Positions 13,497 to 63,118 are shown, counted from the stretch's first letter. The stretch: 64,000 bases of DNA from Bdellovibrionales bacterium (GCA_965203875.1 OZ241914.1:1358039-1422038), one strand, 5' to 3'. A program made the numbers and translations. The notes: generated from the sequence alone by a model not told the origin.

Positions 13497-13697
13497 TAAT
13501 TTCAGCATGCAACAAAGATAGGTGTAGAGCTGGGGTTTGGTGTATCAGTAGCTATAAACAGCAGCTGTTGGAGCTTACCTTGGACGTTGCACAACATTTT
13601 ATCAAACAATAGCTTAGCTTCACTAAGACCTTTGGTCTGAACATTACGCCAGCTATTATTTGATAAAATTGAAAACCTTTATGATTGAAGACCTTTA
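13497..13697 (-). repeat. SR-1 structured intergenic repeat (one unit plus an extra left flank), minus orientation, abutting the mutase stop codon
   Basis: The reverse complement reads TAAaggtcttcaatcat-aaaggttttcaatttt-atcaaataatagct-[core with agacc-aaa-ggtct]-agctattgtttgat-aaaatgttgtgcaacgtccaagg. The TAA is the stop of 13695..15233. Boundaries are approximate. Confidence 0.8.
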
Positions 13698-21893: not shown

Positions 21894-22140
21894 AGGTCTT
21901 CAATTAATAAGGCCCTTCGTTTTTGAATTAAAGGTCTTCAATTCTATCAAATACTTGCTAGTGTAGTGGAAAGACCGGAGGTCTTGTAGCGGAACTAGGC
22001 AAGGATTTGATAGAATGTTGCCCAACGTTCAAGGTATATTACGAAAGCTTTTGTTCATAGCAGAAAGATCAGGCCGAAAGTGGAGCCAAGGGGCATTTAT
22101 TAAAAAAGCCAAAGCAACGTTCAAAGTATATTCCAAACAA
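21891..22140 (+). repeat. SR-1 structured intergenic repeat array (partial flank plus two units), starting on the ankyrin gene's TAA stop
   Basis: TAAaggtcttcaatt at 21891. A full unit spans 21930-22048 (aaaggtcttcaatt / ctatcaaatacttgc / core with aagacc-gga-ggtctt / gcaaggatttgataga / atgttgcccaacgttcaaggtatatt). A second, flank-less unit runs to about 22140. Confidence 0.85.
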
Positions 22141-22170
22141 ATTTTCTAAGATCCAAAGTTTTTAATATAA

Positions 22171-22252
22171 CAAATCTAAGCATAGAGCTTGCCGAGGTAC
22201 GCTGCTCCCCAGAGCAGCTTGAAAGCCTCTCTAAGCTCTATGCTTAGATTTG
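22171..22252. repeat. SR-2 element: a 42-bp conserved core flanked by perfect 20-bp inverted repeats
   Basis: caaatctaagcatagagctt (22171-22190) and aagctctatgcttagatttg (22233-22252) are exact reverse complements. The core is gccgaggtacgctgctc-ccca-gagcagcttgaaagcctctct. Confidence 0.9.
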
Positions 22253-22394
22253 TTTAAACTCTCCCTCTTATAAGCAGTAAATTGTGAATACTTAATACAT
22301 ATAAATACTACATTTTTATAGTGAAATTGAATTTTTTAACTAAATTATAAACAAATATGCTAATATCACTCTCTAAAGAAGCAACACGATATCC

Positions 22395-25298
22395 ATGAAA
22401 CTCAAGTTTATTAGACATATTAAAAAAGCAAGTACTTTTAAGAAAGTTGTTAAGACAAAAGTACTTTTATTTTCTGTAACATCATTTTTTATAACATTTG
22501 GTGTACTTAGTGTTTTTACTTACGCTAAAGCTCAAACTACTTCCTACACAGAGCCTAGCTTGGATGATCTAAGATTAGCTAATAAAGCTGTCTCCTCTTG
22601 CAGAGTCTTACAAGATGTTATTAGTGAAAATAGTCAGGTTGAAGACATCCCAGCTACTAAAGTTTTTGTTGAACTACAAAGAACAGAAGATGGGGATCTT
22701 CTAATAGACGATGAAGCTTGTAGAGAAAGTATTTTAGAGTTTGTTAAAAGTTTATGCACTTCTAGTTCTTCTAAGAACAATCTTTATTGTGAAAGATTAG
22801 GGATTAAGAAAAGTGAAAGTACTTTCGACTCAAATGAAGGTGCTAATACTAGTACTAATGATAATACTAATGGTAATGAAGTTGATCGTATAAGCGACTA
22901 TAAAAAAAGCGATTATAAGAAATTTGGTCAGTCGGCTATAGATAATTTAGGTATAGATCTATCAGACGATATAAGTTTTGAATCAAGTTTAGATGAAAAA
23001 GATCAACGGGAAGAAAGTAAGCTTAAGTTTTTGGCAGCTGGTACATTATTTTCTTTAAGTCCTGTAAAAAAGCTTAGAGTTGCTTCATTCGTTGGTAAGA
23101 ACTTAGCTATTAGAATAAAACCTGTTCTTAACGGAGCATTGTTAGTATTGGCTACCCTAGGTTTATCGTCTTGTAATGATGCTACAGGTCCTGAGCCAGT
23201 TAAACCTCCAACTGTAGTAGATACTCCTTGTACTAGAAGAGAAAGTGGTTATTTTCAATTATCAGGTGCTAATGTTGCTTGTATAAAGCTTCCTACCCTA
23301 ACTTATTCTTTTTTAACTAGCACAGGCGAAGAATCGGATTCTTCAAACGGTGATCCGGACACTACAATAAGAATAAAGTTTGATTCAGAAGTTGTTTTTA
23401 TAGACAACAACGAATGGCAAGAACTAACTCCAGAAAATGTCTTACAAATGCTGGAAATTAAAAAAAATAACACAGAAACTGATCTTACAACCCCAGAAGG
23501 CTCTATAAATCAGGATAACATATCCATAACCACAGAAAGCTCTAATACAGTTATAACTATAAAACCTCCAAATAGTTCTAATGGCAAAATCTATCATGCT
23601 GGGGAGTATTCTATGTTAACCAAAAACTATGCTCCAAAGACAGATGCTTCAAAAGTACAACAAAGTACTAATATAAATACTTATCTTGAAAGTATAAAAG
23701 AAGAATCCTCATTTAGTGTTACTGGCAATAATCCATGTGTTAGAGGCGAAACAGGTTACTTTTATTTTAGAGATTCTAACAACATGGCTAGATGTGAAAA
23801 CCTAATACCTAATATAAGTTATACTTTTAGTAAAAATAATGATCCTCAAGCTATCCTAAACATAAGCTTTGATTCTGATGTTGTGTACATAGACAACAAC
23901 GGTTGGTCTGAAATAGATAACAACAATATTTTAGACATGCTAGCCATCAATCCTGTTGATACTGGTACTGATGTTGATTATACGATTTATACTGGCGATT
24001 TATTAGTAGAAGATGGTCCTATTGATCAGGAACAAATCACCGTAACCAAAACAAATACTGGCATCACCATTGAAATAGATCCTCCTAACACTGGGTTGCA
24101 TTGGCGCAAGGTACATAAAATTGGGTTGTATCAAGCTGGTAACTACATGCTTTCTGCTAGTAATTATATTAGAAGATCAGATATTGATATAGTGATTCAA
24201 AACAACGCACTGGATGATTATCTAGATGCCGCAAAAGGTAGTAGTGGTACAGAGTTTTCTATTGATGCTGTCTCTAACTTATCCTGTGGATCAGAAACAT
24301 TTCAAGGTTATATGCCTACAACATCTATTGAAGACGAACACCAAGAGCCATCTTTTTGTGGAGCCTATGTGCATGAACTTCCACCTGAATTAGCTATAGC
24401 AGCACATCACCATTATCAACCCAGAAGAGCTGATCCTAATACAACCTATGTAATAGATATTGGCTTTGTAATGTCCGAAAGATATTCTACACCTGGTTGG
24501 GATGATTTTATAACGAACCATGTGCTTACTCATGTGAATGATATTTATCAAAGATCAGGAGTTAACGTAGAATTTAGAGCTAAAAGTGTTGTACCTTTTC
24601 AAGATTATAGGCACTATATACGCTGTCAGATTGATGCTCTAGATTTAAATAATAGATATGCTATATCCCGTGTTAATTTTGATTTGATTTCTATAATACG
24701 AAAGAATCATGGAGTTGATCTGATTTATACAATACAAAATTTTGAAGAAGAGACAAGAATTGCTGGGTTTGCTTCTGTTCGATTTAATGATCATTCATTG
24801 GAGGAAGCCAGAATATATGCCACTAGTGGTACGGTAGATCCTGGTTCTCATAACAAAGAAATACCTGACATGTTTGATCAACAGTACAGATTCATACATG
24901 TCCTAACACATGAACTGGGCCATAACCTAGGATTACTTCATAACAAGGAAGATTATGAAACATTCCCTGTTGAGAGCATTTTTCATCCTAAAGGGTATGG
25001 ATATATAGGGTCAGCTAATGCAATAGACGGACAAGCTTTAAGATATGGAACAGTGATGTCGATTCGTATAGACGACGTGCCTTTTTTCAGTGCTAATAAA
25101 GTGGTAACAAAAGAGGAATTATGTATAGACGAAGACAGGTACGACAATAAACTTGGCGGTGGATTTTGTACAGCCAGTTACGATAAACTAGCTGATGAAC
25201 AGCTTCGTTTAGGTGATGAGCAAGCAGACGCTTCGGAGGCTTTGCAGTACACAATAGAGGATGCCTCTAAGTATCACTGTGGTTCAGGATCATGTTAG
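22395..25298 (+). CDS. Multidomain metzincin zinc metalloprotease (reprolysin/ADAM-like catalytic motif) with an internal lipobox-like segment
   Basis: 967 aa. The order is a signal peptide (..FTYAKA/QT), a 4-Cys N-domain, then a hydrophobic stretch ending LATLGLSSC (Cys260). Two modules of about 175 aa follow. The C-terminal domain carries HELGHNLGLLH (HExxHxxGxxH) and a downstream YGTVMS (candidate Met-turn). Confidence 0.85.
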   Translation: MKLKFIRHIKKASTFKKVVKTKVLLFSVTSFFITFGVLSVFTYAKAQTTSYTEPSLDDLRLANKAVSSCRVLQDVISENSQVEDIPATKVFVELQRTEDGDLLIDDEACRESILEFVKSLCTSSSSKNNLYCERLGIKKSESTFDSNEGANTSTNDNTNGNEVDRISDYKKSDYKKFGQSAIDNLGIDLSDDISFESSLDEKDQREESKLKFLAAGTLFSLSPVKKLRVASFVGKNLAIRIKPVLNGALLVLATLGLSSCNDATGPEPVKPPTVVDTPCTRRESGYFQLSGANVACIKLPTLTYSFLTSTGEESDSSNGDPDTTIRIKFDSEVVFIDNNEWQELTPENVLQMLEIKKNNTETDLTTPEGSINQDNISITTESSNTVITIKPPNSSNGKIYHAGEYSMLTKNYAPKTDASKVQQSTNINTYLESIKEESSFSVTGNNPCVRGETGYFYFRDSNNMARCENLIPNISYTFSKNNDPQAILNISFDSDVVYIDNNGWSEIDNNNILDMLAINPVDTGTDVDYTIYTGDLLVEDGPIDQEQITVTKTNTGITIEIDPPNTGLHWRKVHKIGLYQAGNYMLSASNYIRRSDIDIVIQNNALDDYLDAAKGSSGTEFSIDAVSNLSCGSETFQGYMPTTSIEDEHQEPSFCGAYVHELPPELAIAAHHHYQPRRADPNTTYVIDIGFVMSERYSTPGWDDFITNHVLTHVNDIYQRSGVNVEFRAKSVVPFQDYRHYIRCQIDALDLNNRYAISRVNFDLISIIRKNHGVDLIYTIQNFEEETRIAGFASVRFNDHSLEEARIYATSGTVDPGSHNKEIPDMFDQQYRFIHVLTHELGHNLGLLHNKEDYETFPVESIFHPKGYGYIGSANAIDGQALRYGTVMSIRIDDVPFFSANKVVTKEELCIDEDRYDNKLGGGFCTASYDKLADEQLRLGDEQADASEALQYTIEDASKYHCGSGSC
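24909..24941 (+). other. Metzincin zinc-binding motif HELGHNLGLLH
   Basis: Codons cat gaa ctg ggc cat aac cta gga tta ctt cat, read directly from the sequence. Confidence 0.9.
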
Positions 25299-25327
25299 GT
25301 TAAGGTGATCAAGTTTTTATCCATCTA

Positions 25328-28300
25328 CTAATAACAGGTGCCTGTCTGTTGGTGACAACGGTTGTAGTCTGTCCACCAACAGTCACTATTTCTATCACAA
25401 CTAGCAGAAATTCCACAAGTTTTTCTTCCATATGAGATTCCACTATGGCATTGACCTTGGCCTCTACATCTTGTTCCACCTGTGCATCGACCACTTCTGC
25501 AATATGCACCACATGTATTTTTATCATCTGAGTCACAGATTACTCCTCCACTGTAGCAGGTTCCAGCTGCTGTATTATTATGAGTTCTGTATCCACAATT
25601 TTTATTCCCAACTTCACTTCGATAGTTTCTATTAACGTCTTGACAAGTCTCTGGGTCATCAGAATCAGTCCAACAAGTTTTTACACCACACACACTTGTT
25701 GAAGTACTGCCACTACCTTGATTTGTGGTATTTGGATGAGTACTTGGACAAGATACTTCACTTGATGTTTTAGCTACACGTGTACCGCATTGATCAGGAT
25801 TACACTTATAACAATCATTTGGGATGCAGGTAGGACCACTTCCATTCCAGCATGTTTTTACACCACATACTAGCGGTGTTTTTTTAGTACTCTTACAAGT
25901 TTGTTTTGAAGTATATGGATGAGTACTTGGACAAGATACTTCACTTGCTGTTTTAGCTACACGTGTACCGCATTGATCAGGATTACACTTATAACAATCA
26001 TTTGGGATGCAGGTAGGACCGCTTCCATTCCAGCATGTTTTTACACCACATACTCTGGTTGAACGACTATTACAAGTTTGTTGTGAAGTATTTGGATGAG
26101 TACTTGGACAAGATACTTCACGTGCTGTTTTAGCTACACAACTGTTACCACTACATTTTTGACAAGGATTGCAATCACACCGGGGAGGATCTACACAACT
26201 ACCACTTCCATTACAAACTTTGCCACCAGTACATTTGCTAGTTGGTGATCCACATCCATCAGAAGGACATTTCTTGCATGCATTTCTATCTTCAGTAGTT
26301 AAAGTACAAGGTGTCCCATTATTACAGCTTCCATTCACACAGAGGTTACATGTACCAGTACAATCTGAGGGTCCGCTACACTGAGGAGGATCTACACACC
26401 TACCACTTCCATTACAAATTTTGTTAAGAGCAATGCATCTATTAGTTGGTGAACCACATCCGTTAGAAGGACATACCATACAATTATTAGTGTCTGCTGT
26501 GCAGTAATCGGTACCTCCACGATAGCAAGTTTCTGGGTCAGGGTCTGGGTCAGATAATGTGCTGTCATCGTTACCAGTGCTATCATCTACGCCGCTATCA
26601 TCACCAGTATTTCCACCGCCTCCAGTGGATTTACACTTGTAACAATATGTATCGCATACACCGATAGCTTCAGGAGTTTTACCATCATCAGTACAGGCTG
26701 ATGAACTACTTTCTTTATGAGTAGGATGATTTGAGCAGTTTACAGCTTGAGCTATGCACTTACCTCCAACACACTCTTGGCAGGAGTTACAATCTGAAGG
26801 ACCACTACAGGAATGTTGACTTACACATCGATCTGCCAGACTTGTATCTGCTGAACAAACTTTTCCAAGTGCTGCACAAGCAGCATTATCGCAGGCACAA
26901 CCATTATTTACGCAAATATTACCAGGATTACAGCAAATAGCATTATTACGACAACTAGCATGATTAGCTGGACATTCACAACGGCCAGTAGCACTATTAC
27001 ACCTCTGAATACCAGTGCATGTTACCCCAGCACATGGATCCGTTGTAGTAGTCGTAGAGAAAATAAGTGCATCTTCTTGAGGCGATGGAGAGTAGTTACC
27101 ATACTCGTCCACTAACCTAAGCTCTATACTATACTCAATACTAGAATCAGGTGCAGGCAACTCAGTAAATCTTAAATGTAACTCCCTATCTTTACTACGA
27201 TCACCACCTTCAGGATCACTAGGATCACTCGCATATAGCTGGGCAGTCACAGGATGTGTATCATCACCAATAGTAAAGGAACTACCAGATAAATCATCAC
27301 ATAAAAACCAATCTCCAACTGGATGATCTATACCACTAATCTTTTTGTTCAAACGACATAAAAATACTCCCTTACTAAAACTGGAATTTAAACAATATCC
27401 TGCATCATTACCATCTGGACACCTATAACCCCTATCCCATACACGACCTTCTAGCTTAAACCTACATGTCGTAGAATTATCAGAATTTGTAGTACATTGA
27501 AGGGTAGTGGTCGTTGTTGAAGTTGATGAACTGTCTGAAGAATCAGCCTCAGAATTAGACACAGAAGATAGAGATATTGTAGATGGATTATGCTTATTAT
27601 TAGCTTTATTAGCCAGATTACTAACTAAGTTGTTACTAACTAACTTGTTGTTATTAGCTTTGCTACTAACTAACTTGTTGTTATTTTTGTTACTAGCTAA
27701 ATTAGCTTGAAAGCTATTATCAGGTGGTTGAGTCGTAGTAACTGAAGTAGTCTTTACTATTGTCTTATTGCGTGCTGTTACATACCTCTGAGAATAAGAA
27801 AATACCTTCTCAGCTCTGCATCTGATAGGATCATAACTAGATACTGCCTTCCTCTCCTCAACCTCCACAAATAACTTAAATCCAAGATCATGACGAATAT
27901 TAGCCTCAGGCAAACCTGATAAACTAGAAGCAAGCTTATAACCTAACTTACTCTTATCTGAATTCTCAGGTTTATCATAAACAGAACGAGGACGAACAAA
28001 AATAGGATGTATAGCCTTACTCTTATGCCTGTTACAACTATCTGTCTTCTCATTCTTGCTTATATCCCAAGGCCTTATACCAATACGAACATCATACTTA
28101 GACTTAGCTATGTAATTACTTACAGGAGTATAACTACTCACAGGCTCAACTGGACCAAAGGATAAGGACGATATATCAGATAAACGCTCACTTAACAAAA
28201 ATAACGACTCTCCGGTCAACCTATCCCACTTATATCCATCTGAAGATGAACCATTGTTGTCTGCTAGCCCTTGATGAGCTGTCCGTTTATCTTCATCCTT

Positions 28301-28510
28301 AAGCTTACGATATTTATTAGGATTCTCTTCAACCCACTTGTCTAAATCACCTAACTTTATCAAAGGAGCAGAAGACTCATGAGACTTAAACTCCATCTTC
28401 ACTAGATCAAAAGTCAAAGCTGAACTGTTACTAATTTGAGCATCTGATGGACATATAGAAATAGGATTAGTAGAAGATGTCTTTAAATACTTATTATACA
28501 AGTCCTCCAA
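25328..28510 (-). CDS. Giant Cys-rich / EGF-like repeat surface protein body, probably the 3' part of a phase-variable fusion with the pilin-like ORF upstream
   Basis: The ORF-track start is a TTG with no signal peptide. The same frame is actually open from 28684, so it runs through the G13 tract. The C-terminal 560 aa are dominated by Cys-rich modules (DPCAGVTCTGIQRCNSATGRCEC; CPSxGCGSPTxxC..CNGSGxCVDPPxC; three copies of VAKTxxEVSCPSTHP..CGVKTCWNGSGPTCIPNDCYKCNPDQCGTR). Confidence 0.8.
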   Translation of the reverse strand: MEDLYNKYLKTSSTNPISICPSDAQISNSSALTFDLVKMEFKSHESSAPLIKLGDLDKWVEENPNKYRKLKDEDKRTAHQGLADNNGSSSDGYKWDRLTGESLFLLSERLSDISSLSFGPVEPVSSYTPVSNYIAKSKYDVRIGIRPWDISKNEKTDSCNRHKSKAIHPIFVRPRSVYDKPENSDKSKLGYKLASSLSGLPEANIRHDLGFKLFVEVEERKAVSSYDPIRCRAEKVFSYSQRYVTARNKTIVKTTSVTTTQPPDNSFQANLASNKNNNKLVSSKANNNKLVSNNLVSNLANKANNKHNPSTISLSSVSNSEADSSDSSSTSTTTTTLQCTTNSDNSTTCRFKLEGRVWDRGYRCPDGNDAGYCLNSSFSKGVFLCRLNKKISGIDHPVGDWFLCDDLSGSSFTIGDDTHPVTAQLYASDPSDPEGGDRSKDRELHLRFTELPAPDSSIEYSIELRLVDEYGNYSPSPQEDALIFSTTTTTDPCAGVTCTGIQRCNSATGRCECPANHASCRNNAICCNPGNICVNNGCACDNAACAALGKVCSADTSLADRCVSQHSCSGPSDCNSCQECVGGKCIAQAVNCSNHPTHKESSSSACTDDGKTPEAIGVCDTYCYKCKSTGGGGNTGDDSGVDDSTGNDDSTLSDPDPDPETCYRGGTDYCTADTNNCMVCPSNGCGSPTNRCIALNKICNGSGRCVDPPQCSGPSDCTGTCNLCVNGSCNNGTPCTLTTEDRNACKKCPSDGCGSPTSKCTGGKVCNGSGSCVDPPRCDCNPCQKCSGNSCVAKTAREVSCPSTHPNTSQQTCNSRSTRVCGVKTCWNGSGPTCIPNDCYKCNPDQCGTRVAKTASEVSCPSTHPYTSKQTCKSTKKTPLVCGVKTCWNGSGPTCIPNDCYKCNPDQCGTRVAKTSSEVSCPSTHPNTTNQGSGSTSTSVCGVKTCWTDSDDPETCQDVNRNYRSEVGNKNCGYRTHNNTAAGTCYSGGVICDSDDKNTCGAYCRSGRCTGGTRCRGQGQCHSGISYGRKTCGISASCDRNSDCWWTDYNRCHQQTGTCY
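25690..26150 (-). repeat. In-gene tandem repeat, period 183/177 bp, about 3 copies
   Basis: tacttggacaagatacttcac recurs at 25741, 25924 and 26101. Copies 1 and 2 are nearly identical over more than 120 bp (ttttagctacacgtgtaccgcattgatcaggattacacttataacaatcatttgggatgcaggtaggacc...). Boundaries are approximate. Confidence 0.9.
27596..27705 (-). repeat. Short in-gene tandem / low-complexity repeat encoding N/K/L/V/S-rich peptide
   Basis: ctaactaacttgttgttatt occurs twice among related ttagc/ttact units. The encoded peptide is NNNKLVSSKANNNKLVSNNLVSNLANKANNK. Confidence 0.7.
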
Positions 28511-28598
28511 AACTCCAACATCTGAACCATCATATAACCTATCTAAATGTAAAGTAACTCCACTAGATGAAGCACTTAATGGAGAATCTACAGAAGTA

Positions 28599-28889
28599 TT
28601 ATGACCAATCTTGCTTAAATTTTGGTCGCCCCCCCCCCCCCAAATTTTGGGTAGTAGAGGTAGTAGAAACAGTAGATATAGTAGCTACTTCTTTCTTAGG
28701 AGAAACCTTACTGCCATTCTTAGAAAAATGAGCCAATACATTACCAGCTACAGATGAACACATATAAGTATCATGCTTCCTCTGAGTTAAAGTCATCATA
28801 TTAGCCGACATAAACGTAACCACAAAACCTGTAGCTGATACCAACGCCAATCCTATCAATGTCTCCAACATCGTAAATCCCCCAGTCTT
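28599..28889 (-). CDS. Prepilin-type N-terminal (cleavage/methylation-like) domain ORF, truncated by frame at a G13 tract
   Basis: It encodes ..KTGGFTMLETLIGLALVSATGFVV.., a close match to the type IV pilin/pseudopilin G/FTLxE plus hydrophobic-helix signature. The only canonical start nearby is the ATG at 28871 (the M of FTMLE), preceded by GGGGGA. No start exists for a normal short leader. The ORF stops 8 codons after the G tract. Confidence 0.6.
   Translation of the reverse strand, partial: KTGGFTMLETLIGLALVSATGFVVTFMSANMMTLTQRKHDTYMCSSVAGNVLAHFSKNGSKVSPKKEVATISTVSTTSTTQNLGGGGRPKFKQDWS
28629..28641 (-). repeat. Homopolymeric tract: C13 on the plus strand, G13 on the coding strand
   Basis: Counted directly: ...ggtcg cc cccccccccc c aaatt... 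It sits exactly at the junction of the two overlapping reading frames. Confidence 0.95.
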
Positions 28890-29222
28890 GCGACTGGACG
28901 CATTTGCTGGCTTACAGCCAGCCGCTTGAACAAAAGCTAACAGTAAACTACGAAAACCTATTGTTCGATAACAACTTTCAGTTGGAGGCTTTTGCAACCT
29001 AACGGCTGCAGAACTTCGGAGTAACCAAGTTTTTCGTGATTCACATAAGCTTTTGAACCATCCATGGCGACTGGACGCATTTGCTGGCCAACCTACGGTT
29101 GGATCAGTTTGCTGGCCTTCGGCCAGCCTCTTAAACGAAAAATTAACTTGCGACTGCGGAGCTTTATAAAAACCAACCTTCGGCCCAATCAATCTGCCGG
29201 CTTTCAGCCGGCCCTTTAAAAG
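28890..29222. repeat. SR-3 cluster of REP-like short GC-rich hairpins
   Basis: gcgactggacgcatttgctgg occurs twice (28890, 29066). Hairpins present are gctggct-tac-agccagc, ccaacc-tac-ggttgg, gctggcc-ttc-ggccagc and gccggc-tttc-agccggc. The same family is found at 63706-63906. Confidence 0.85.
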
Positions 29223-29485
29223 AAAAGTATTTTTAAAACGAATAAATAAAGATCTTAAAAAAAACAAAATAAAAACCTAAAACTTAAAACCAAACTTACC
29301 AAACTCTAAATTCTACGACAAAAAACCCTTTTCACAAAGAAAAACAAAACTAAGTCCAGAAAAATACCCCTCACACACATATAAATTATCACATTGAGAC
29401 AGTACCTTCTGATACAGTACCTTTCATTTACAAAAAGGTAACCACGACATATTAAGCAGACTAAAATATGCAAGCTACAACAATA

Positions 29486-29565
29486 AAAGATGGGTGTATG
29501 GTTTAGAGAGGCTTTCAAGCTGCTCGAAAGAGCAGCGTACCTCGACAAACCATACACCCATCTTT
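29486..29565. repeat. SR-2 element (opposite orientation): a 42-bp conserved core flanked by perfect 19-bp inverted repeats
   Basis: aaagatgggtgtatggttt (29486-29504) and aaaccatacacccatcttt (29547-29565) are exact reverse complements. The reverse complement of the core is gtcgaggtacgctgctc-tttc-gagcagcttgaaagcctctct. This nearly matches the 22191-22232 core except for the loop. Confidence 0.9.
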
Positions 29566-29601
29566 GTTCTAGTAATAAACTTCCAAAAAATTTTTTGGAG
29601 T

Positions 29602-30102
29602 CTACCTTGATGATAAGCTGCTTTGGCATTTTACAAAGCTATCTTGGAAGCTACATAGTTTACGTGTTCTGCTCCCTTGATGAGTGGAGTCTTCATAGAA
29701 AAAACTTTTGTCATCTCTCCATCTGATATACTTTGTTATTGCCCCATGAGTGTTTATTTTTTGCCACGTTAGTATTTTTTTATCTTTTATGACTACAAAA
29801 TAAAGACTTCCCCACCAATTTCTATCATATTCCATATATACAACTTTTTGATTAGGTTTGTGGATATTTGTACAAACAGTAATATCAGGATTACTATATC
29901 TTCTAATATAACTGTCCTTTTGCCTTCTTGAAATAGACAAGTTATTGTAATGCGTACCTATCTCTTCTATAAACCTTTGTTTGAGTTTGCTTACAACGGT
30001 ACTATCTGTGTCTATGTTTTCTGACCTGCATATGGAAGATTTGGCTTCAACTATGTAAAACAAAAATAACATAATACATAAAATAAAATATTTTGGACCC
30101 AT
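29602..30102 (-). CDS. Small hypothetical secreted protein
   Basis: I prefer the internal ATG at 30102, giving MGPKYFILCIMLFLFYIVEA/KS, a plausible signal peptide. No family recognised. Confidence 0.5.
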   Translation of the reverse strand: MGPKYFILCIMLFLFYIVEAKSSICRSENIDTDSTVVSKLKQRFIEEIGTHYNNLSISRRQKDSYIRRYSNPDITVCTNIHKPNQKVVYMEYDRNWWGSLYFVVIKDKKILTWQKINTHGAITKYIRWRDDKSFFYEDSTHQGSRTRKLCSFQDSFVKCQSSLSSR

Positions 30103-30169: not shown

Positions 30170-30246
30170 TGGTGATTCGGCCAGGACTCGAACCTGGAAC
30201 CCTCTGCTTAGAAGGCAGATGCTCTATCCAATTGAGCTACCGAACC
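30170..30246 (-). tRNA. tRNA-Arg (anticodon TCT)
   Basis: The reverse complement is ggttcggtagctcaattggatagagcatctgccttctaagcagagggttccaggttcgagtcctggccgaatcacca. It forms a cloverleaf with a 7-bp acceptor stem, anticodon loop CT-TCT-AA, T-loop TTCGAGT and an encoded CCA. Confidence 0.95.
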
Positions 30247-41482: not shown

Positions 41483-42484
41483 GTGTCAAACATAAATGTA
41501 GATCTTGATAAATATAAATTGGATTGCATAATAGGTCAAAGCCTTCCTATTATGAAAGTCATGCAACTCATAGACAGGGTTGCATCTTCATGTGCAAATG
41601 TACTAATCACAGGCGAAAGTGGAACAGGAAAGGAGTTGGTAGCTCAAGCACTTCATTACAATTCCGAACGATCCAAGGAACCATTGATAGCAATAAACTG
41701 CACCGCAATACCATCGGAGCTATTAGAAAGTGAATTGTTTGGACATGTAAAAGGTGCATTTACTGGTGCTACATCTGATAGAGTGGGTAGATTTGAAAAA
41801 GCAAAGAGGGGCACAATATTTCTAGACGAAATAGGGGACATGAGTCCTAGCCTACAGGCCAAACTGCTGAGAGTTTTGCAGGATAGAAAATTTGAACCAG
41901 TTGGTGATAGTAGGCCAAGACAATTTAATGCAAGGGTAATAACGGCTACAAATATAGATCTAGAGCGTGCGATAAAAGAAAATAGATTTAGAAGGGATTT
42001 ATATTATAGGCTAAATGTCATACCAATAAAAATGCCCTCTCTAAGAGAACGACCATCAGATATACCCATATTAACACATTATTTTTTAAAAATATTTACA
42101 AGACAAAATCACAAACAAATAAATGGAATTAGCAAAAGTGCTATGGATCAACTGTGTGCGTATCCTTGGCCTGGAAATATAAGGGAGTTAGAAAACTTAA
42201 TAGAACGATTGGTCATCATAAAAGATCATGGATTAATTGAATTAGCTGATATACCTGCAAAATACATAACCAACCAAAAAGTAAATCCAGATGATAAATT
42301 GCTAACTTATGTTCCTAACTCAGGGATAGATCTTAATGAAGCAATTGCTAGGTATGAAAATATGCTTTTGGTGGATGCTCTAAATAAGGTAAATTGGAAT
42401 AAGAACAGAGCAGCCAGCTTACTAAAATTGAACAGAACCACCTTGGTAGAAAAGATCAAAAGAAAAAAGTTGAAGCAAGTTTAA
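41483..42484 (+). CDS. Sigma-54-dependent transcriptional activator (AAA+ and HTH only, no sensory/receiver domain)
   Basis: GESGTGKELVAQALH (Walker A), the GAFTGA loop (KGAFTGA), an RFRRDLYYRL arginine-finger region and a C-terminal Fis-type HTH (NKNRAASLLKLNRTTL). The AAA+ core starts about 15 aa from the N-terminus. Confidence 0.9.
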   Translation: MSNINVDLDKYKLDCIIGQSLPIMKVMQLIDRVASSCANVLITGESGTGKELVAQALHYNSERSKEPLIAINCTAIPSELLESELFGHVKGAFTGATSDRVGRFEKAKRGTIFLDEIGDMSPSLQAKLLRVLQDRKFEPVGDSRPRQFNARVITATNIDLERAIKENRFRRDLYYRLNVIPIKMPSLRERPSDIPILTHYFLKIFTRQNHKQINGISKSAMDQLCAYPWPGNIRELENLIERLVIIKDHGLIELADIPAKYITNQKVNPDDKLLTYVPNSGIDLNEAIARYENMLLVDALNKVNWNKNRAASLLKLNRTTLVEKIKRKKLKQV

Positions 42485-42722
42485 AGGTTTTCAATTTTTA
42501 ATAAGTGTACATAGCGAAACGGCCCGACTGTAGGTCAAAGTGTAGCTATGTATACTTATTAAAAATGTTTACCAGCTCTCAAGGTATACTCCAAAATATT
42601 TGCTAAAGGTCTTCAATTTTATCTAATATTTGATTAGCAAAGCGGTAAGCCAGAAAGCTTAAAGCGTAGCTAAGAAAATATTTGATAAAAAGTTGTGCAA
42701 CGTTCAAGGTATATTCCAAAAG
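42482..42722 (+). repeat. SR-1 structured intergenic repeat, two tandem units, starting on the activator's TAA stop
   Basis: Unit 1 (42482-42596): TAAaggttttcaattttt / aataagtgtacatagc / core / gctatgtatacttatt / aaaaatgtttaccagctctcaaggtatactcc. Unit 2 (42604-42722): aaaggtcttcaatttt / atctaatatttgattagc / core with taagc-cagaaa-gctta / gctaagaaaatatttgat / aaaaagttgtgcaacgttcaaggtatattcc. Confidence 0.9.
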
Positions 42723-42752
42723 ATTCACATAAAGCCTTTAAAATTCTCATCT

Positions 42753-55671: not shown

Positions 55672-55764
55672 GGAGGGGTGGGTGAGTGGTTTAAACCAGC
55701 AGTTTGCTAAATTGTCGTACGGATTATATCCGTACCGAGAGTTCGAATCTCTCCCCCTCCGCCA
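55672..55764 (+). tRNA. tRNA-Ser (anticodon GCT)
   Basis: Perfect acceptor stem GGAGGGG/CCCCTCC, anticodon loop TT-GCT-AA, a long variable arm (gtacggat-tata-atccgtac), T-arm GAGAG-TTCGAAT-CTCTC and an encoded CCA. Confidence 0.95.
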
Positions 55765-55800
55765 CATACCCACAAAGTAGTGTGGCATAAAACTATTTTT
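55759..55800 (+). repeat. 42-bp direct repeat, left copy (last 6 nt of tRNA-Ser plus downstream hairpin/T-run)
   Basis: ccgccacatacccacaaagtagtgtggcataaaactattttt is identical to 57745-57786. Confidence 0.95.
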
Positions 55801-55912
55801 ATCCAAACATACCAAGCTTTCAGACTAGTATTTTGCCAAACATCCTGTTCTCATGAATAGTTTTTATCTTAAGTATTAAAGACAACAAGTAGTTTGACCG
55901 TAACGAGGTAAT

Positions 55913-57237
55913 ATGAGAAAGGGACTTCGTAAAAAAATTGAAGATGCCAAGAAAATGCATTCCCAAAAAATACAGAGTAACCGAATTTACCTTGGGGACA
56001 ACTTAGAGATAATGAAATCCCTCGAAAGTGGTAAAATCGATCTGATCTATATCGACCCTCCATTTTGTGCTCAAAATGTTTTGGAATCAAAAGCCTGGGG
56101 TAAAAAAATATCCTTTAATGACAAATGGGGAGGTGGTATCCATTCCTATATCAAATGGCTTGTCCCTAGACTTCGTCAGTGTCACCGGCTTTTAAAAGAT
56201 GTCGGAATTTTTGTTTTGCATTTGGATTGGAGAAGTGTTCACTATGCCCGGGTTGAACTTGATAAAATTTTTGGAGACAAACAATTCTTAAACCAAATAA
56301 TATGGCAATACAAAACTGGAGGAAATTCAAAAAAATTTTTTGCAAGAAAGCATGATGTTTTGTTGATATACTCTAAATCGAATAAGTGGATATATAATGT
56401 ACAAAAAGAAAAATCTTATACAAAGGCAAAAAATAGGCAGGCAGGTATTGTAAACCTAGGTCAAGGAGAAGCAGAATTTTTTGAAGATAAAAATGGAGTT
56501 TTCAGTTGGATTAATATGAGAGATGTTTGGGACATTCCTTATATCAATTCTCAAGCACGAGAAAGACTTGGTTATCCGACGCAAAAACCATTGGCATTGC
56601 TTGAAAGAATAGTAACAGCATTTACAAACGAAGGAAATATTGTTGCCGATTTTTTCTGCGGCTGCGGTACAACTCTAGATGCAGCTCAAAATCTCAGTCG
56701 CAAATGGTTGGGTGCTGATATTTCTCCAGACGCTATTGCTGTTATTAAAGGGAGGATGCTTAGAGAACACAATATTAAAGTTGAAGTTGTCGATACAAAC
56801 CAGCTTACTAGGGAGGAAATCTATAAGCTAAAGCCTCTTGAATTTGAAAAGAAGATGGTGGAAATGCTAGGAGGAACGCCTAATACCAAACAGACTGGGG
56901 ACAGGGGTATCGACGGCTGGACGCACGATCACAGACCTATACAGGTGAAGATGTCCAAAAATGTAGGAAGACCTGTCATCGATAATTTTATAAAAATGTA
57001 AAACAAGGCAACGGGAAGGGAGTTATTATTGCCATGAGTTTTTCAAGAACGGCTCATGAGGAAGTTGCTAAACTTGCAAACGAAGAAGGATTGGAAATCG
57101 GTCTTATACCAAGTGACGATCTTATCAGGGATGCAGGAAATACCTCCAAAAGCAAACCTGAAAAAGCATTAGAAAGATCAAGAAAAGTCGTACCTAAAAG
57201 AAAGGACAGAAGAAAAAAGACGACAAAGTCGTCTTAG
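55913..57237 (+). pseudogene. Beta-class N6A/N4C DNA methyltransferase fused to an Mrr-like (PD-(D/E)xK) nuclease domain, split by a frameshift at A5 (56992-56996)
   Basis: DLIYIDPPF (motif IV) lies upstream of FFCGCGTT (motif I), which is the beta-class order. The C-terminus reads GDRGIDGW...IQVKMSKNVGRPVIDNFIKM*. The +1 frame continues KNVKQGNGKGVIIAMSFSRTAHEE..., which is open from 56986. One extra A restores a single 441-aa ORF. Confidence 0.75.
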
Positions 57238-57476
57238 GCTTTTGGAATAAGCGGGATAACATTTTCAGGAAAATAGAATTTGTAATAATCTTTGATTAGC
57301 CGTTCTCTTTCCTGCATTAATTCGTCCAACTCCTCTTCGTAAAGATCAAGCTTACCTTCATTGAAAAGCTCAATGGCATCTGAAATTTCGTCCATTTCTC
57401 TAGCTATTTGTTGGATATCCATCTGGGGTTTTATAAGCCAGAATGGCCTATGTATGTCAAATAACTTAACCTGCAA
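57234..57476 (-). CDS. Small acidic hypothetical protein inside the islet
   Basis: 80-aa ORF with helical/acidic composition. No family recognised. Confidence 0.35.
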   Translation of the reverse strand: MQVKLFDIHRPFWLIKPQMDIQQIAREMDEISDAIELFNEGKLDLYEEELDELMQERERLIKDYYKFYFPENVIPLIPKA

Positions 57477-57744
57477 TGACGCATACTACTGATATTCTGC
57501 TCATAAACCAAAAATTGCCATCTAGCAACGTGGCAAAAGCAAGCTTGATCAACTTTTCTTGCTTTAGTCTATCTCTTCTGATCCTTGCTACCAGTGACCA
57601 TGTTTCTTATGAAAAAAATTCACTAGGAAAACAAGATACTAAAGCCACTCTCATATCTTGGCCCCCCAGAGCCTATAGTGCAGTCCATTGAATGGTGGAC
57701 AACCTTACCTGTTGAAGTGTGTACCGTAAGACAATAGCTTGTGG

Positions 57745-57786
57745 CCGCCACATACCCACAAAGTAGTGTGGCATAAAACTATTTTT
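57745..57786 (+). repeat. 42-bp direct repeat, right copy
   Basis: Identical to 55759-55800 and lies 47 bp upstream of tRNA-Arg(ACG). Confidence 0.95.
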
Positions 57787-57833
57787 TGTGTAATTCTAAG
57801 TATTATTAATGTGGTTTAAGTGAAGTGTGCATT

Positions 57834-57910
57834 GCGCTCGTAGCTCAGTTGGATAGAGCTCCAGACTACGAATCTGGCGGTCGCATGTTCGAATCGTGCC
57901 GGGCGCACCA
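57834..57910 (+). tRNA. tRNA-Arg (anticodon ACG)
   Basis: gcgctcgtagctcagttggatagagctccagactacgaatctggcggtcgcatgttcgaatcgtgccgggcgcacca, with anticodon loop CT-ACG-AA, T-loop TTCGAAT and an encoded CCA. Confidence 0.95.
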
Positions 57911-57919
57911 AGTTTTATT

Positions 57920-59032
57920 ATGAGTAGTATTTCGCTAGTATTATCTGCTGGAGGAGCTAGAGGGGCGTATCAAGTTGGCGTTCTAAAAGCTTTAAAAGAA
58001 CTGTATTCGGGCAAGCGTATTCCTTTTGATGTTTTATGTGGCGTAAGCTCCGGTTCTATAAACACCGCAGCTTTAGCTTCACATGCCGATAACTTTGAAC
58101 ATGCAATAGATACACTTGAAGCAGTTTGGACCAATGTAACCTCAAGCAACGTTTTTAGAACCGACATACGAACGGTAAGTAGTATTGGCATGAAATGGCT
58201 TAAAGATCTTTCTTTGGGCGGTATTACTGGAGGCGGCTCCCCTAAGTCTCTGCTAGATACAGATCCTTTACAAAAACTTCTGGCTAAACACATACCAATA
58301 CACAGAATAAAGCAGAACGTAGACGCTGGGTATTTGAGAGCACTAACCGTAACCGCAACAAACTATTATACATCAAATGCAGTGACATTTGTTCAAGCTA
58401 AAAAAGATGTTCCGATGTGGAGGCGTACAAGGAGGATGGGTGAACACGCTGACATTGGTTTAGAGCATCTTATGGCTTCTTCATCCATCCCCATCTTTTT
58501 TCCTAGTGTCCAGATAGATGGACGGCATTTTGGAGACGGGTGTATTAGAAACACATGGCCCTTAAGCCCTGCTATCTACCTTGGTGCAAAAAAAATCCTA
58601 GCTGTTGGGGTTAGAAAAAGAACTTATGTTACAGAATCTAAAGATAAAAAACCCACACCTTCTGTAGCACACATTGCAGGTGTAATTTTAAATGCCGTTC
58701 TGTTAGATTCCATAGAGATAGACATAGTCAGAATGGATAAAATCAATCATGTTGTTAAACGCCTTCAGGATCAGTCAAAAAAATACCGACATATTGAGCA
58801 TCTTTGGATAAGCCCTTCTGAGGACATAGGTGAATTAGCCTTATCTTACTATAAAAAACTACCTAGAGTTATACGCTACCTACTTAAAGGATTAGGTCCT
58901 GATAAGCAAGTTACAGACATCGTAAGTTTTTTACTATTTGATCCTACCTATTGTAAAAAATTAATTGAACTTGGTTACAAAGATACAAAAGAGCGTTCTG
59001 GACAGATAATCCAGTTTCTAAAAACTGTTTGA
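57920..59032 (+). CDS. Patatin-like phospholipase
   Basis: LSAGGARGAY (oxyanion GGxRG), GVSSGS (GxSxG) and FGDGCIRN (catalytic Asp). The start is moved to the ATG at 57920, because the ORF-track start at 57896 lies inside the tRNA. Confidence 0.88.
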   Translation: MSSISLVLSAGGARGAYQVGVLKALKELYSGKRIPFDVLCGVSSGSINTAALASHADNFEHAIDTLEAVWTNVTSSNVFRTDIRTVSSIGMKWLKDLSLGGITGGGSPKSLLDTDPLQKLLAKHIPIHRIKQNVDAGYLRALTVTATNYYTSNAVTFVQAKKDVPMWRRTRRMGEHADIGLEHLMASSSIPIFFPSVQIDGRHFGDGCIRNTWPLSPAIYLGAKKILAVGVRKRTYVTESKDKKPTPSVAHIAGVILNAVLLDSIEIDIVRMDKINHVVKRLQDQSKKYRHIEHLWISPSEDIGELALSYYKKLPRVIRYLLKGLGPDKQVTDIVSFLLFDPTYCKKLIELGYKDTKERSGQIIQFLKTV

Positions 59033-60499: not shown

Positions 60500-61186
60500 G
60501 TGAAAAAGTCAGGCGGTAAGAGAATAAGGAATTTGAAAAGCAAGTTGGAGTATAAGCCTCATCCTGTGGCCAAAGCTTTGGACATCGTTTTATCTTCGTC
60601 TAATACTAAATTTGATGAGTCTATAGATGTTGCTGTTCGTTTGGGTATAGATGTGAAAAATCCAGAGCATCAAGCCAGAGGTTCTGCTATTTTGCCGCAC
60701 GGTTTGGGCAAAAATATAAAATTATTGGTGATTGCTAAAGGTGAGAAAGTTTTGGAGGCTAAGAACGCTGGAGCTGATCATGTGGGTTCTGACGACATGA
60801 TTGATAAGATTAAAAATTCCTGGCTTGATTTTGATAAAATAATCGCAACTCCGGATATGATGGCATCTGTATCCAAGGTGGCTAAGATATTGGGACCTAA
60901 GGGTCTTATGCCAAACCCGAAAGTTGGTACCGTAACTTTTGATTTAGAAAAGACTATTAAGGCGGAAAAAAAGGGAAAGTTAAGTTTTAAATCTGACAAA
61001 TCTGGGATAGTGCATGGAGCGTTTGGAAAAAAGAGTATGGGTAAGGAAGCTCTGGAAGAAAATTTGCTTAGCTTCTTGGGTACTCTTCATAGAGGAAAAC
61101 CTTCTAATAGCAAGGGTGTGTACTTTAAGTCGGTAACTTTATCTTCTACAATGGGCCCTGGTGTACCTGTCGAGTATAAAGGTTAA
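60500..61186 (+). CDS. rplA: 50S ribosomal protein L1
   Basis: 228 aa with FDESIDVAVRLGID and GPKGLMPNPKVGTVT. Confidence 0.95.
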   Translation: MKKSGGKRIRNLKSKLEYKPHPVAKALDIVLSSSNTKFDESIDVAVRLGIDVKNPEHQARGSAILPHGLGKNIKLLVIAKGEKVLEAKNAGADHVGSDDMIDKIKNSWLDFDKIIATPDMMASVSKVAKILGPKGLMPNPKVGTVTFDLEKTIKAEKKGKLSFKSDKSGIVHGAFGKKSMGKEALEENLLSFLGTLHRGKPSNSKGVYFKSVTLSSTMGPGVPVEYKG

Positions 61187-61292
61187 AGATCTTCAATTTT
61201 ATCAAATGTTTGATTAGTGCAGCGGCAAGCCGTAAGGCCTAGAGCGTAGCTAGGAGAATATTAGAGCGCAGCTCTCAAGGTAGATTATAAAA
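61184..61292 (+). repeat. SR-1 unit (partly decayed) starting on the rplA TAA stop
   Basis: TAAagatcttcaatttt / atcaaatgtttgattag / core with gcc-gtaa-ggc ...agagcgtagc / decayed 3' arm / cagctctcaaggtagatt. Confidence 0.8.
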
Positions 61293-61376
61293 GAATTGTC
61301 TAAGGCCTCAAAGTTTTTGATAAGCACACACAGCAGCTTACCGTTTCAATTAGACAAACATCAGAATTACAAATTC

Positions 61377-62714: not shown

Positions 62715-63061
62715 AAGGTCTAATCAAGAATTTGACAAAAGAAAACCCTTAGGGCATCTTTTTAGAATATACTTTGAGAACTGGTAAACATTTTATCAAA
62801 CAATAGCCTAGCTTCACTTTCGGCCTTTGGCCTTTCGCTACGCTTTAAGACAATGCTTTTATAGTGTACCTTGAACGAACGTTGCTTTGGCACTTTTAAT
62901 AAGCACACACTAGCTCCACTTTGACCTACGGTCGGGTCGTTATGCTCTGAACAAAAGCTTTCGGAATATACTTTGAACGTTGCACAAGGCCACAGCCTTT
63001 CAGAGCAGCAAAGCCACTCTTGCAGGCTGCGGCTCAAGGGCCTGATAATTGAAAACCCTTA
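62715..63061 (-). repeat. SR-1 array (about 3 units, rearranged), minus orientation, downstream of hsp20
   Basis: The reverse complement contains aagggttttcaatt..., three right flanks (caacgttcaaagtatattcc, caacgttcgttcaaggtacac, cagttctcaaagtatattc) and cores with gacc..ggtc and ggcc-aaa-ggcc. Confidence 0.8.
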
Positions 63062-63118
63062 ATCTTTAGACAAAAATCCAGAGCAATTCCAACACTAAAA
63101 TCCTGACTTTAAAGATAT

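Follow-up and report, generated by a model that had tools for sequence, protein, structure and literature searches.

SR-2 is one family of intergenic hairpin elements of about 84 nt, and two of its sub-types, A and B, both occur in the window, the whole 64-kb stretch of DNA that was analyzed. All three helices of the hairpin evolve by compensatory change, and the asymmetric internal loop that interrupts it is nearly invariant among the copies. We propose that SR-2 is transcribed with its neighbors and works in cis as an RNA hairpin, in processing by RNase III, in termination or in the protection of 3' ends, and that its pairing is kept by template switching together with selection; at present, we regard this reading as an even call.

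An earlier note on this DNA described an identical core between perfect inverted arms, in two copies of opposite orientation, and a re-reading of the sequence agrees with that description, including the different tetraloops (CCCA versus TTTC) and the single c/t difference at the junction. On the plus strand, copy A (22171-22252) consists of a 5' arm caaatctaagcatagagctt, the core gccgaggtacgctgctc-ccca-gagcagcttgaaagcctctct, and a 3' arm aagctctatgcttagatttg; in copy B (29486-29565), the core is read on the minus strand, between aaagatgggtgtatggttt and aaaccatacacccatcttt. The 42-nt core can be written as G(C/T)CGAGGTACGCTGCTC-NNNN-GAGCAGCTTGAAAGCCTCTCT, with perfect arms of 20 nt in A and 19 nt in B, and the inner module reads GAGGUAC..UUGAAAGCCUC. 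With up to three mismatches allowed, a 40-nt core pattern was found exactly twice in the 64-kb window versus not at all in 100 shuffles, and each of the arm sequences was present in the window solely at its own hairpin.

Table 1. Positions of the SR-2 hairpins, their parts and associated features in the window
Feature	Position	Strand	Remarks
SR-2 hairpin copy A, whole element	22169..22254	+	22-bp outer stem including two extra A-T pairs; sequence, fold
Copy A, 5' arm	22171..22190	+	Perfect 20-bp complement to 22233-22252
Copy A, 3' arm	22233..22252	+	Ends in AGATTTG, followed by TTTAAAC
Copy A, conserved inner module	22194..22229	+	Fold; both helices covary in relatives, loop residues nearly invariant
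Copy A, inner module helix	GAGGU 22194-22198 with GCCUC 22225-22229	+	Fold
Copy A, internal loop	AC 22199-22200 opposite UUGAAA 22219-22224	+	Fold
Copy A, apical 7-bp helix	22201-22207 with 22212-22218; tetraloop 22208-22211	+	Fold
SR-2 hairpin copy B	29486..29565	- (core-forward strand)	Sequence, exact core match, fold
Copy B, arms and core	5' arm 29565-29547; 3' arm 29504-29486; core 29546-29505	-	Sequence
Copy B, apical helix	29536-29530 with 29525-29519; loop 29529-26	-	Fold
Copy B, internal loop	29538-37 opposite 29518-13	-	Fold
Box (GCCAAAGCAACGTTCAAAGTATATTCCAAA) and linker (..AAAGTTTTTAATATA) before copy A	22108..22168	+	Homology upstream of copies
Linker and box (reverse complement TGCCAAAGCAGCTTATCATCAAGGTAGACTCCAAAAAA..) upstream of copy B	29568..29628	-	Alignment; overlaps the stop codon of the 185-aa ORF
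Three-gene cassette bracketed by inverted hairpin copies	22395..29267		Two convergent units; ORF calls
Metzincin-like ORF	22395-25298	+	Reprolysin_3/5 matches
1060-aa ORF	25328-28510	-	ORF call
Pseudopilin-like ORF, 222 aa	28599-29267	-	Prepilin motif
'ttatcaaa' hairpin type	13596-13669, 21941-22016, 42618-42690		In the window
'taataagtgtacat' hairpin type	42494-42566		In the window

Fold, homology and compensatory change

Either strand at either site is predicted to form one long hairpin, with free energies between -49.5 and -52.2 kcal/mol and z between -8.7 and -11.4; copy A is at -52.2 kcal/mol (z -11.4) and copy B at -50.5 kcal/mol (z -9.5). Pairing runs on from the arms into the core, through GAGG(U)/(G)CCUC and across the asymmetric internal loop to a 7-bp helix with a tetraloop, so that the whole element forms one interrupted helix of about 34 bp.

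Relatives were found via the neighboring metzincin-like protein, homologues of which are present on ENA metagenome assemblies. The closest relatives are known solely from assemblies ERZ25067941, ERZ25070167 and ERZ25067264, the first of which holds a 1.24-Mb contig that is syntenic with the window (locus L004; related loci are cited below by such numbers). A covariance model built from the first eight copies was scanned against the window, where it gave 102 bits for copy A and 103 bits for copy B, and against nine related loci, a total of about 275 kb. Twelve copies and no other matches were recovered; of these copies, ten are intact and two, in L007 and L012, are decayed, and ten of the twelve lie outside the window, in two related metagenome-assembled genomes. 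The L004 sites orthologous to copies A and B are both filled, and neither locus L013 of a distant relative nor contig_3 of a close relative (L011) holds a copy. The contexts of the copies are unlike one another, and include metzincin cassettes, an ExbB/GDPD spacer, and the region upstream of an unrelated 274-aa gene.

Pattern scans of the GTDB species representatives (one genome per species), the JGI metagenomes and IMG/VR found no true match to the core; four pattern matches have neither an apical stem nor complementary flanks and were dismissed as chance. The genome of the window and its relatives are evidently absent from these three collections. A blastn search of plasmid and phage collections with the whole spacer also found nothing. 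When the window was scanned with Rfam 15 at gathering thresholds, three tRNAs were the only matches and SR-2 matched no family, and permissive Rfam scans returned only sub-threshold matches with the shape of miRNA precursors. The window itself has a GC content of 32-40%, and encodes an ankyrin-repeat protein, two SpoIID-like genes and a short sigma-54 activator.

Among the ten intact copies (nine distinct), standard pairs make up 94.8% of 288 cells, and changes on both sides were found at 16 of the 32 base pairs (42 cells), with all three helices involved. None of 500 shuffles reached the observed values of pairing and double change, a control that overstates independence because the copies share descent. 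That reservation affects neither the slid-register control, in which displacing the 3' partner by 1-3 columns reduced pairing to 26-46%, nor the orthologue comparison, in which hairpin A of the window and its L004 orthologue differ at only two positions, the partners of one pair (A>G / T>C). An alignment of the copies by MAFFT gave the same picture of covariation. Double changes affect 11 of the 20 pairs of the outer stem, helix 2 occurs as GAGG/CCUC and as GGGG/CCCC, and the apical helix occurs as GCUGCUC/GAGCAGC, GCCAGUC/GACUGGC and GUCAAUC/GAUUGAC. A long-stem RNA, the stem of which is free to vary, had been among the options of the earlier note, and these data support the long-stem structure with a variable stem that this option entails.

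Variation is free at the tetraloop and in the junction triplets. Ten of the 12 copies have the internal loop, UAC/UUGAAAG, without change (UCAAAAG in L005 17391 and UAU in L012 4636 being the exceptions), and a predicted U.G pair in helix 2 is invariant. A kink-turn is marked by tandem G.A pairs after a 3-nt bulge, and the sarcin-ricin (bulged-G) motif by AGUA/GAA with a bulged G. On inspection against the pairing that covariation supports, columns 27-60 and 28-59 of SR-2 pair in Watson-Crick fashion, and the remaining UAC/UUGAAAG fits neither consensus. Also rejected by inspection were group II intron domain V, boxA, sigma-70 or sigma-54 promoters within the core, and a Bacteroidetes-type -7 box (TAGATTTG is found in type A only).

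The two arm pairs had been described as unrelated and locus-specific, and this description is refuted. Read in the core-forward direction, the type A arm is AACAAATCT AAGCATAGAGCTT GCC and the type B arm, in the form carried by the L004 orthologue of copy B, is AACAAATCT GGGTGTATGGTTT GTC. The two are of equal length and collinear, align without gaps, have AACAAATCT at the base in common, and differ by six transitions and one transversion, each with its counterpart change on the 3' arm. Arms identical to those of type A are also present at the paralogous locus L005 9776-9857, upstream of a paralogous metzincin gene, and intermediate variants were found, namely cGtag/ctaCg at L005 17860 and ggtcgt/acgacc at L009 17506 and L012 4636. 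The arms are therefore neither locus-specific nor independent in origin. As for conserved terminal inverted repeats, only the outermost AACAAATCT/AGATTTGTT is common to the copies, and it is mismatched in most B copies (ATCT opposite ATCT). The core is 100% identical between A and B while the arms diverge; since other B copies do differ in the core helices, this identity looks like recent conversion rather than constraint.

Gene neighborhood, orientation and inversion of the core

The gene context given by the earlier note holds: copy A lies 142 nt upstream of the metzincin ORF, and copy B lies 35 nt past a 185-aa signal-peptide ORF and upstream of an ORF with a prepilin motif (GFTMLETLIG). 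The 1060-aa protein encoded between the metzincin-like and pseudopilin-like ORFs has no Pfam or NCBIfam match. At least eight paralogues of the metzincin gene are present on the 1.24-Mb contig of the relative, where they account for a large share of a small genome. The cassette neighbors are present at the five metzincin loci examined on that contig, with hairpins at only some of the borders. A cassette of this composition (a Reprolysin-like protease, a protein of about 1050-1240 aa, and a pseudopilin-like protein) was observed at L004-L007, L009, L010 and L012. No hairpin was found at the cassette borders of L006 and L010 or at the upstream border of L009, and the copy at L012 4636, in the ExbB/GDPD spacer, lies away from any cassette border.

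Several other features of the region were recorded. The prepilin-type motif GFTMLETLIGLALV occurs only at about residue 131 of the 222-aa ORF, so the true start is probably near 28900, and a 138-nt module, found at six loci with an identity of 97-100% (e.g., L009 6870-7007 and L006 6169-6307), overlaps the 5' part of this ORF. A tRNA-Arg(TCT) gene at 30170-30246 (-) adjoins the cassette in both the window and L004, and is a possible boundary of an acquired block. Positions 55672-59032 hold tRNA-Ser(GCT), an adenine DNA methyltransferase-like ORF (55913-57001), tRNA-Arg(ACG), and a patatin-like phospholipase ORF (57896-59032) with weak similarity, well below family cut-offs, to CBASS/anti-phage phospholipases; this region may be a small accessory or defence islet.

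On the core-forward strand, the A, B and B2 copies are also homologous over the 60-75 nt that precede the hairpin. This stretch has the consensus box GCCAAAGCAaCgTT..TCAAGGTAnAyTCCAAA and linker ..AAGTTTTTAATACA, and homologous sequence was found upstream of eight of ten aligned copies. The same box and linker also precede two other long-hairpin types in the window, and the spacers are mosaics of shuffled box, linker and hairpin modules. In these oriented box-linker-hairpin units, SR-2 is thus the 3' module, and it is one of three or more types of hairpin in a modular repeat system spread over the intergenic spacers of a genome that is small and AT-rich. The units, single or in arrays, were seen in spacers 13551-13681, 21894-22168, 42480-42735, 61183-61340 and 62756-63065. 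In the other types ('ttatcaaa...tttgataa' and 'taataagtgtacat...'), the arms differ between copies yet stay paired, apart from two cases with a single mismatch, both of which are G.U on the sense strand. In L004 9270-9760, a module upstream of hairpin A that includes an 'attctatcaaa' hairpin is present as a tandem duplication of about 240 bp; the window has a single copy of it (21894-22130).

Co-directional genes flank ten of the 12 SR-2 copies, and in these the core-forward strand is the sense strand. The two exceptions, L005 17860 (sense to the downstream gene) and L005 17391 (with a flipped core), are in a divergent spacer and have no co-directional gene upstream; the flipped copy runs antisense to the gene on the pseudopilin side, the one faced by its homologues, and was hence counted as an exception. 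In those window spacers that were checked and have co-directional flanking genes, the strand of the box is the strand of the genes. Hairpins of the other types start 10-48 nt past stop codons, and copy B starts 35 nt past one. One-sided mismatches of the transition type, read on the core-forward or box strand and with the other hairpin types of the unit included, were G.U in nine cases versus A.C in two, a small count to which a single decaying copy contributes three of the nine. The orientation bias, the G.U excess and the invariant U.G pair, small as the numbers are, favor pairing at the RNA level on the sense strand.

The copy at L005 17389-17471 and the decayed copy at L012 17259-17336 both have the rare apical sequence GCCAGTC and are 98% identical in the flank, and their cores are opposed. 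Compared with L012 and L004, the L005 core is inverted relative to both of its flanks, and identity between L005 and L004 is 99% up to the arm, beyond which the core is inverted. These comparisons show that the core can flip between its arms. Moreover, window copy B is made perfect by an adjacent two-base change, ATCT to AGAT. Both events are plausibly the expected footprint of replication template switching in inverted repeats, a process that homogenizes the arms, gives multi-base compensations and inverts the spacer (PMC8794818, PMC8604942). The fold-back copying considered in the earlier note is not needed for the origin of SR-2; the flip and the ATCT to AGAT change rehabilitate it in part, as a related mechanism that plausibly accounts for multi-base compensations and the flipped core and serves maintenance rather than insertion. 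As for an inverton, both orientations of the core are seen between related genomes (L005 versus L012 and L004), the segment is very short at 42 bp, and no invertase was seen.

Homology between paralogous spacers often stops at the hairpin. L007 16797-17027, for example, is 99.6% identical to window positions 29267-29497 and then diverges within the arm. At L007 17010-17050, the junction reads aaagatgagtg followed by tgctagatttgtt, in which the start of a B-type 5' arm adjoins the end of an A-type 3' arm and the interior of the hairpin is missing; the site has either lost the sequence from one hairpin to another or is an empty site of an unusual form.

A proposed transcribed hairpin and its rivals

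The proposed RNA role assumes transcription through the hairpin. The box-linker-hairpin unit would then be co-transcribed with the neighboring genes, and the hairpin would act as RNA. A perfect stem of 20-22 bp stacked on further helices is a standard substrate of RNase III, and the interrupted duplex of SR-2, about 34 bp with a perfect outer stem of 20-22 bp, would be a natural substrate for such an enzyme; a gene with Ribonuclease_3 and dsrm domains is present in a relative (L010 5400-6065). As a precedent, Correia elements give rise in mRNA to hairpins on which RNase III acts (PMC2649163). With its U-rich 3' side (AGAUUUGUUUAAA; AUCUUUUAUUGUUG), the hairpin could also serve as a strong structure for termination or at 3' ends, yet the tract is not canonical. 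No U run directly follows a GC-rich stem, and a terminator scan gave only a sub-hairpin of 7 bp at copy A and made no call at copy B. The placement of 10 of the 12 copies, downstream of a co-directional gene and in sense, is like that of a terminator. A sigma-70 scan around copy A found no promoter, so this hairpin may lie either within the metzincin mRNA or upstream of its promoter. Transcripts of flanking units, here the two convergent units of the cassette, may be insulated from each other or processed by the hairpin, and the conserved internal loop might determine where cleavage occurs or be bound by a protein. Template switching inside the hairpin, in the course of replication, would restore perfect pairing after mutation, which would explain the multi-base compensations and the flipped core, and selection would then keep those variants that still pair. 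Several points count against the RNA role: a canonical terminator signature is missing, no promoter was found around copy A, two copies sit in a divergent spacer, the mismatch count is small, the core identity of A and B looks like recent conversion, and template switching alone can yield compensation without selection on RNA. A more elaborate version appears to us unlikely. In it, a dedicated factor would bind or cleave at the invariant loop, which is borne on freely covarying stems; SR-2 would be a new cis-regulatory RNA motif in joint control of the two convergent units of the multi-copy secreted-metzincin/pseudopilin cassette, in an uncultured bacterium with a reduced genome; and the arm-mediated flip would switch that control on or off heritably.

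It is possible, if not probable, that SR-2 is instead a selfish or neutral palindromic DNA repeat of the MITE or REPIN kind, units of which spread and persist as DNA, with any effect on RNA incidental; nothing but homogenization by hairpin-templated replication or repair (quasipalindrome correction) would then keep the arms perfect. Such a repeat would be at home in unrelated contexts (metzincin cassettes, the ExbB/GDPD spacer and the 274-aa gene) and in mosaic spacers of shuffled modules, and would leave decayed copies such as those in L007 and L012. Both the multi-base compensations and the flip of the core bear the marks of template switching (PMC8794818, PMC8604942), and compensatory changes are known in REPINs, too (PMC3116915). 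On the other hand, no transposase, RAYT, integrase or reverse-transcriptase domain was found among the genes called over about 205 kb of related loci, no target-site duplication recurs consistently around the 12 copies, and no clean filled/empty pair was found. Template switching should moreover erase asymmetry, and the asymmetric loop is nearly unchanged over 12 copies; nor are the orientation bias and the excess of G.U on the sense strand predicted. Alternatively, SR-2 might work in DNA recombination, with cruciforms or stalled replication providing breakpoints that drive duplication, exchange and inversion among the cassettes, so that it would generate diversity in secreted or surface proteins, and the flip would be a by-product. 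The window copies do bracket a cassette in inverted orientation, spacer homology ends inside or at the hairpin (L007 versus window 29267-29497; L005 versus L004), and the 1.24-Mb genome has at least eight metzincin paralogues. We nonetheless consider this role improbable: several cassette paralogues have no border hairpin (L006, L010 and L009 upstream), the L012 4636 copy is away from cassette borders, palindromes, being unstable, are expected to be breakpoints in any case, and the conserved asymmetric loop is left unexplained.

Two further options of the earlier note amount to a mobile core of 42 bp, inserted into the loops of pre-existing unrelated hairpins or copying its flank in inverted form upon insertion. 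That the core is identical in A and B and the arms differ would fit such a view, as would L007 17010-17050, which keeps the outer arm bases without the interior and is readable as an empty site. The arms, however, are homologous, collinear, of equal length and linked by intermediates, the core helices themselves covary (the apical stem as GCTGCTC, GCCAGTC and GTCAATC), and about 60-75 nt upstream, with box and linker, are homologous too; therefore the unit of descent is a larger element and not the core, and a mobile core appears highly improbable. The L007 junction, in which a B-type 5' arm meets the end of an A-type 3' arm, fits deletion or rearrangement better than a virgin site. Copies of the core without inverted flanks, which the note had counted against its own view, were encountered only marginally, as the L007 and L012 copies have no 3' arm but their cores are decayed too. 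The comparison with empty sites gave two filled sites in L004, and a site in L007 that has no interior but looks rearranged. Least likely of all is a small-RNA precursor, the variable stem of which (20-22 bp) would be diced by RNase III into guides acting in trans on bacterial or host transcripts. Its shape, with a variable stem and a constant apical module, resembles that of a pre-miRNA, and the only Rfam matches were sub-threshold miRNA precursors, but these concern shape only (25.9-28.7 bits versus a gathering threshold of 100 for mir-759, and 28 versus 72 for mir-988). Even with three mismatches allowed, the arms have no further match in the window, and no host or target is known.

Relation to known repeat families

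Integron attC sites have R''/R' core sites (RYYYAAC ... GTTRRRY), occur in the same orientation on both sides of cassettes, and have an integrase near. This candidate was rejected for SR-2, the hairpin bases of which misfit the core-site consensus on inspection; the copies are mutually inverted, and no integrase domain was found nearby. Quasipalindrome mutation creates or repairs perfect stems in one event, and so matches the ATCT/AGAT change and the flipped core, but it is a mutational mechanism rather than a family of elements, and leaves the conserved asymmetric loop and the orientation bias unexplained.

Correia elements (CREE/NEMIS) are transcribed as long hairpins that are bound or cut by RNase III, with altered expression of the adjacent gene (PMC2649163). 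Like SR-2, they are short and intergenic, have inverted ends around a conserved directional core, and often lie 5' of genes. Unlike SR-2, they carry conserved terminal repeats of 26 bp, duplicate a TA target, generate promoters at their ends, sometimes include an IHF site, and are confined to Neisseria. The ends of SR-2 vary and covary, no target duplication was seen, and similarity between the two is nil beyond a chance GGTACG. In REPINs, compensatory changes across the hairpin are common, and the elements occur singly or in ordered clusters (PMC3116915). They share with SR-2 an extragenic location and a long hairpin of about 80-100 nt with compensatory changes. Their ends (REPs) are conserved and their spacer is variable, whereas in SR-2 conservation is reversed: 11 of the 20 outer-stem pairs vary, and the middle is conserved. 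No Y1 or other transposase Pfam domain, as expected of a RAYT (a Y1 HUH transposase), was found among the genes called over about 205 kb of related loci. In bcr1 of Bacillus cereus and in Borrelia stem-loops, compensatory changes maintain structure (reviewed in PMC3184786). These bcr1 repeats, the Borrelia IS-end stem-loops and the pneumococcal SPRITE, BOX and RUP repeats resemble SR-2 in lying near gene ends and in having predicted roles at the RNA level, but belong to other organisms and have other sequences and architectures; SPRITE carries a clear Rho-independent terminator motif, and SR-2 is without one.

SR-2 may be of use in two respects. It is a compact natural test case for selection on RNA structure versus template switching as the source of compensatory substitutions, and it is a candidate for a signal in the regulation or processing of secreted-protease/pseudopilin cassettes, which form a large paralogous family, in a lineage known from metagenome assemblies only. 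Because its conservation is the reverse of that in REPINs, and because its copies share only the outermost bases where MITEs have conserved terminal repeats, and it has no consistent target duplication, no clear terminator and no Rfam match, SR-2 falls outside CREE/NEMIS, bcr1, SPRITE and REPINs. Among such families, it is unusually clean, in that all helices covary, the loop is fixed, and the core is found in both orientations between near-identical flanks. It calls for no new mechanism of insertion or copying, and is a fresh example of the familiar transcribed stem-loop repeats of bacteria.
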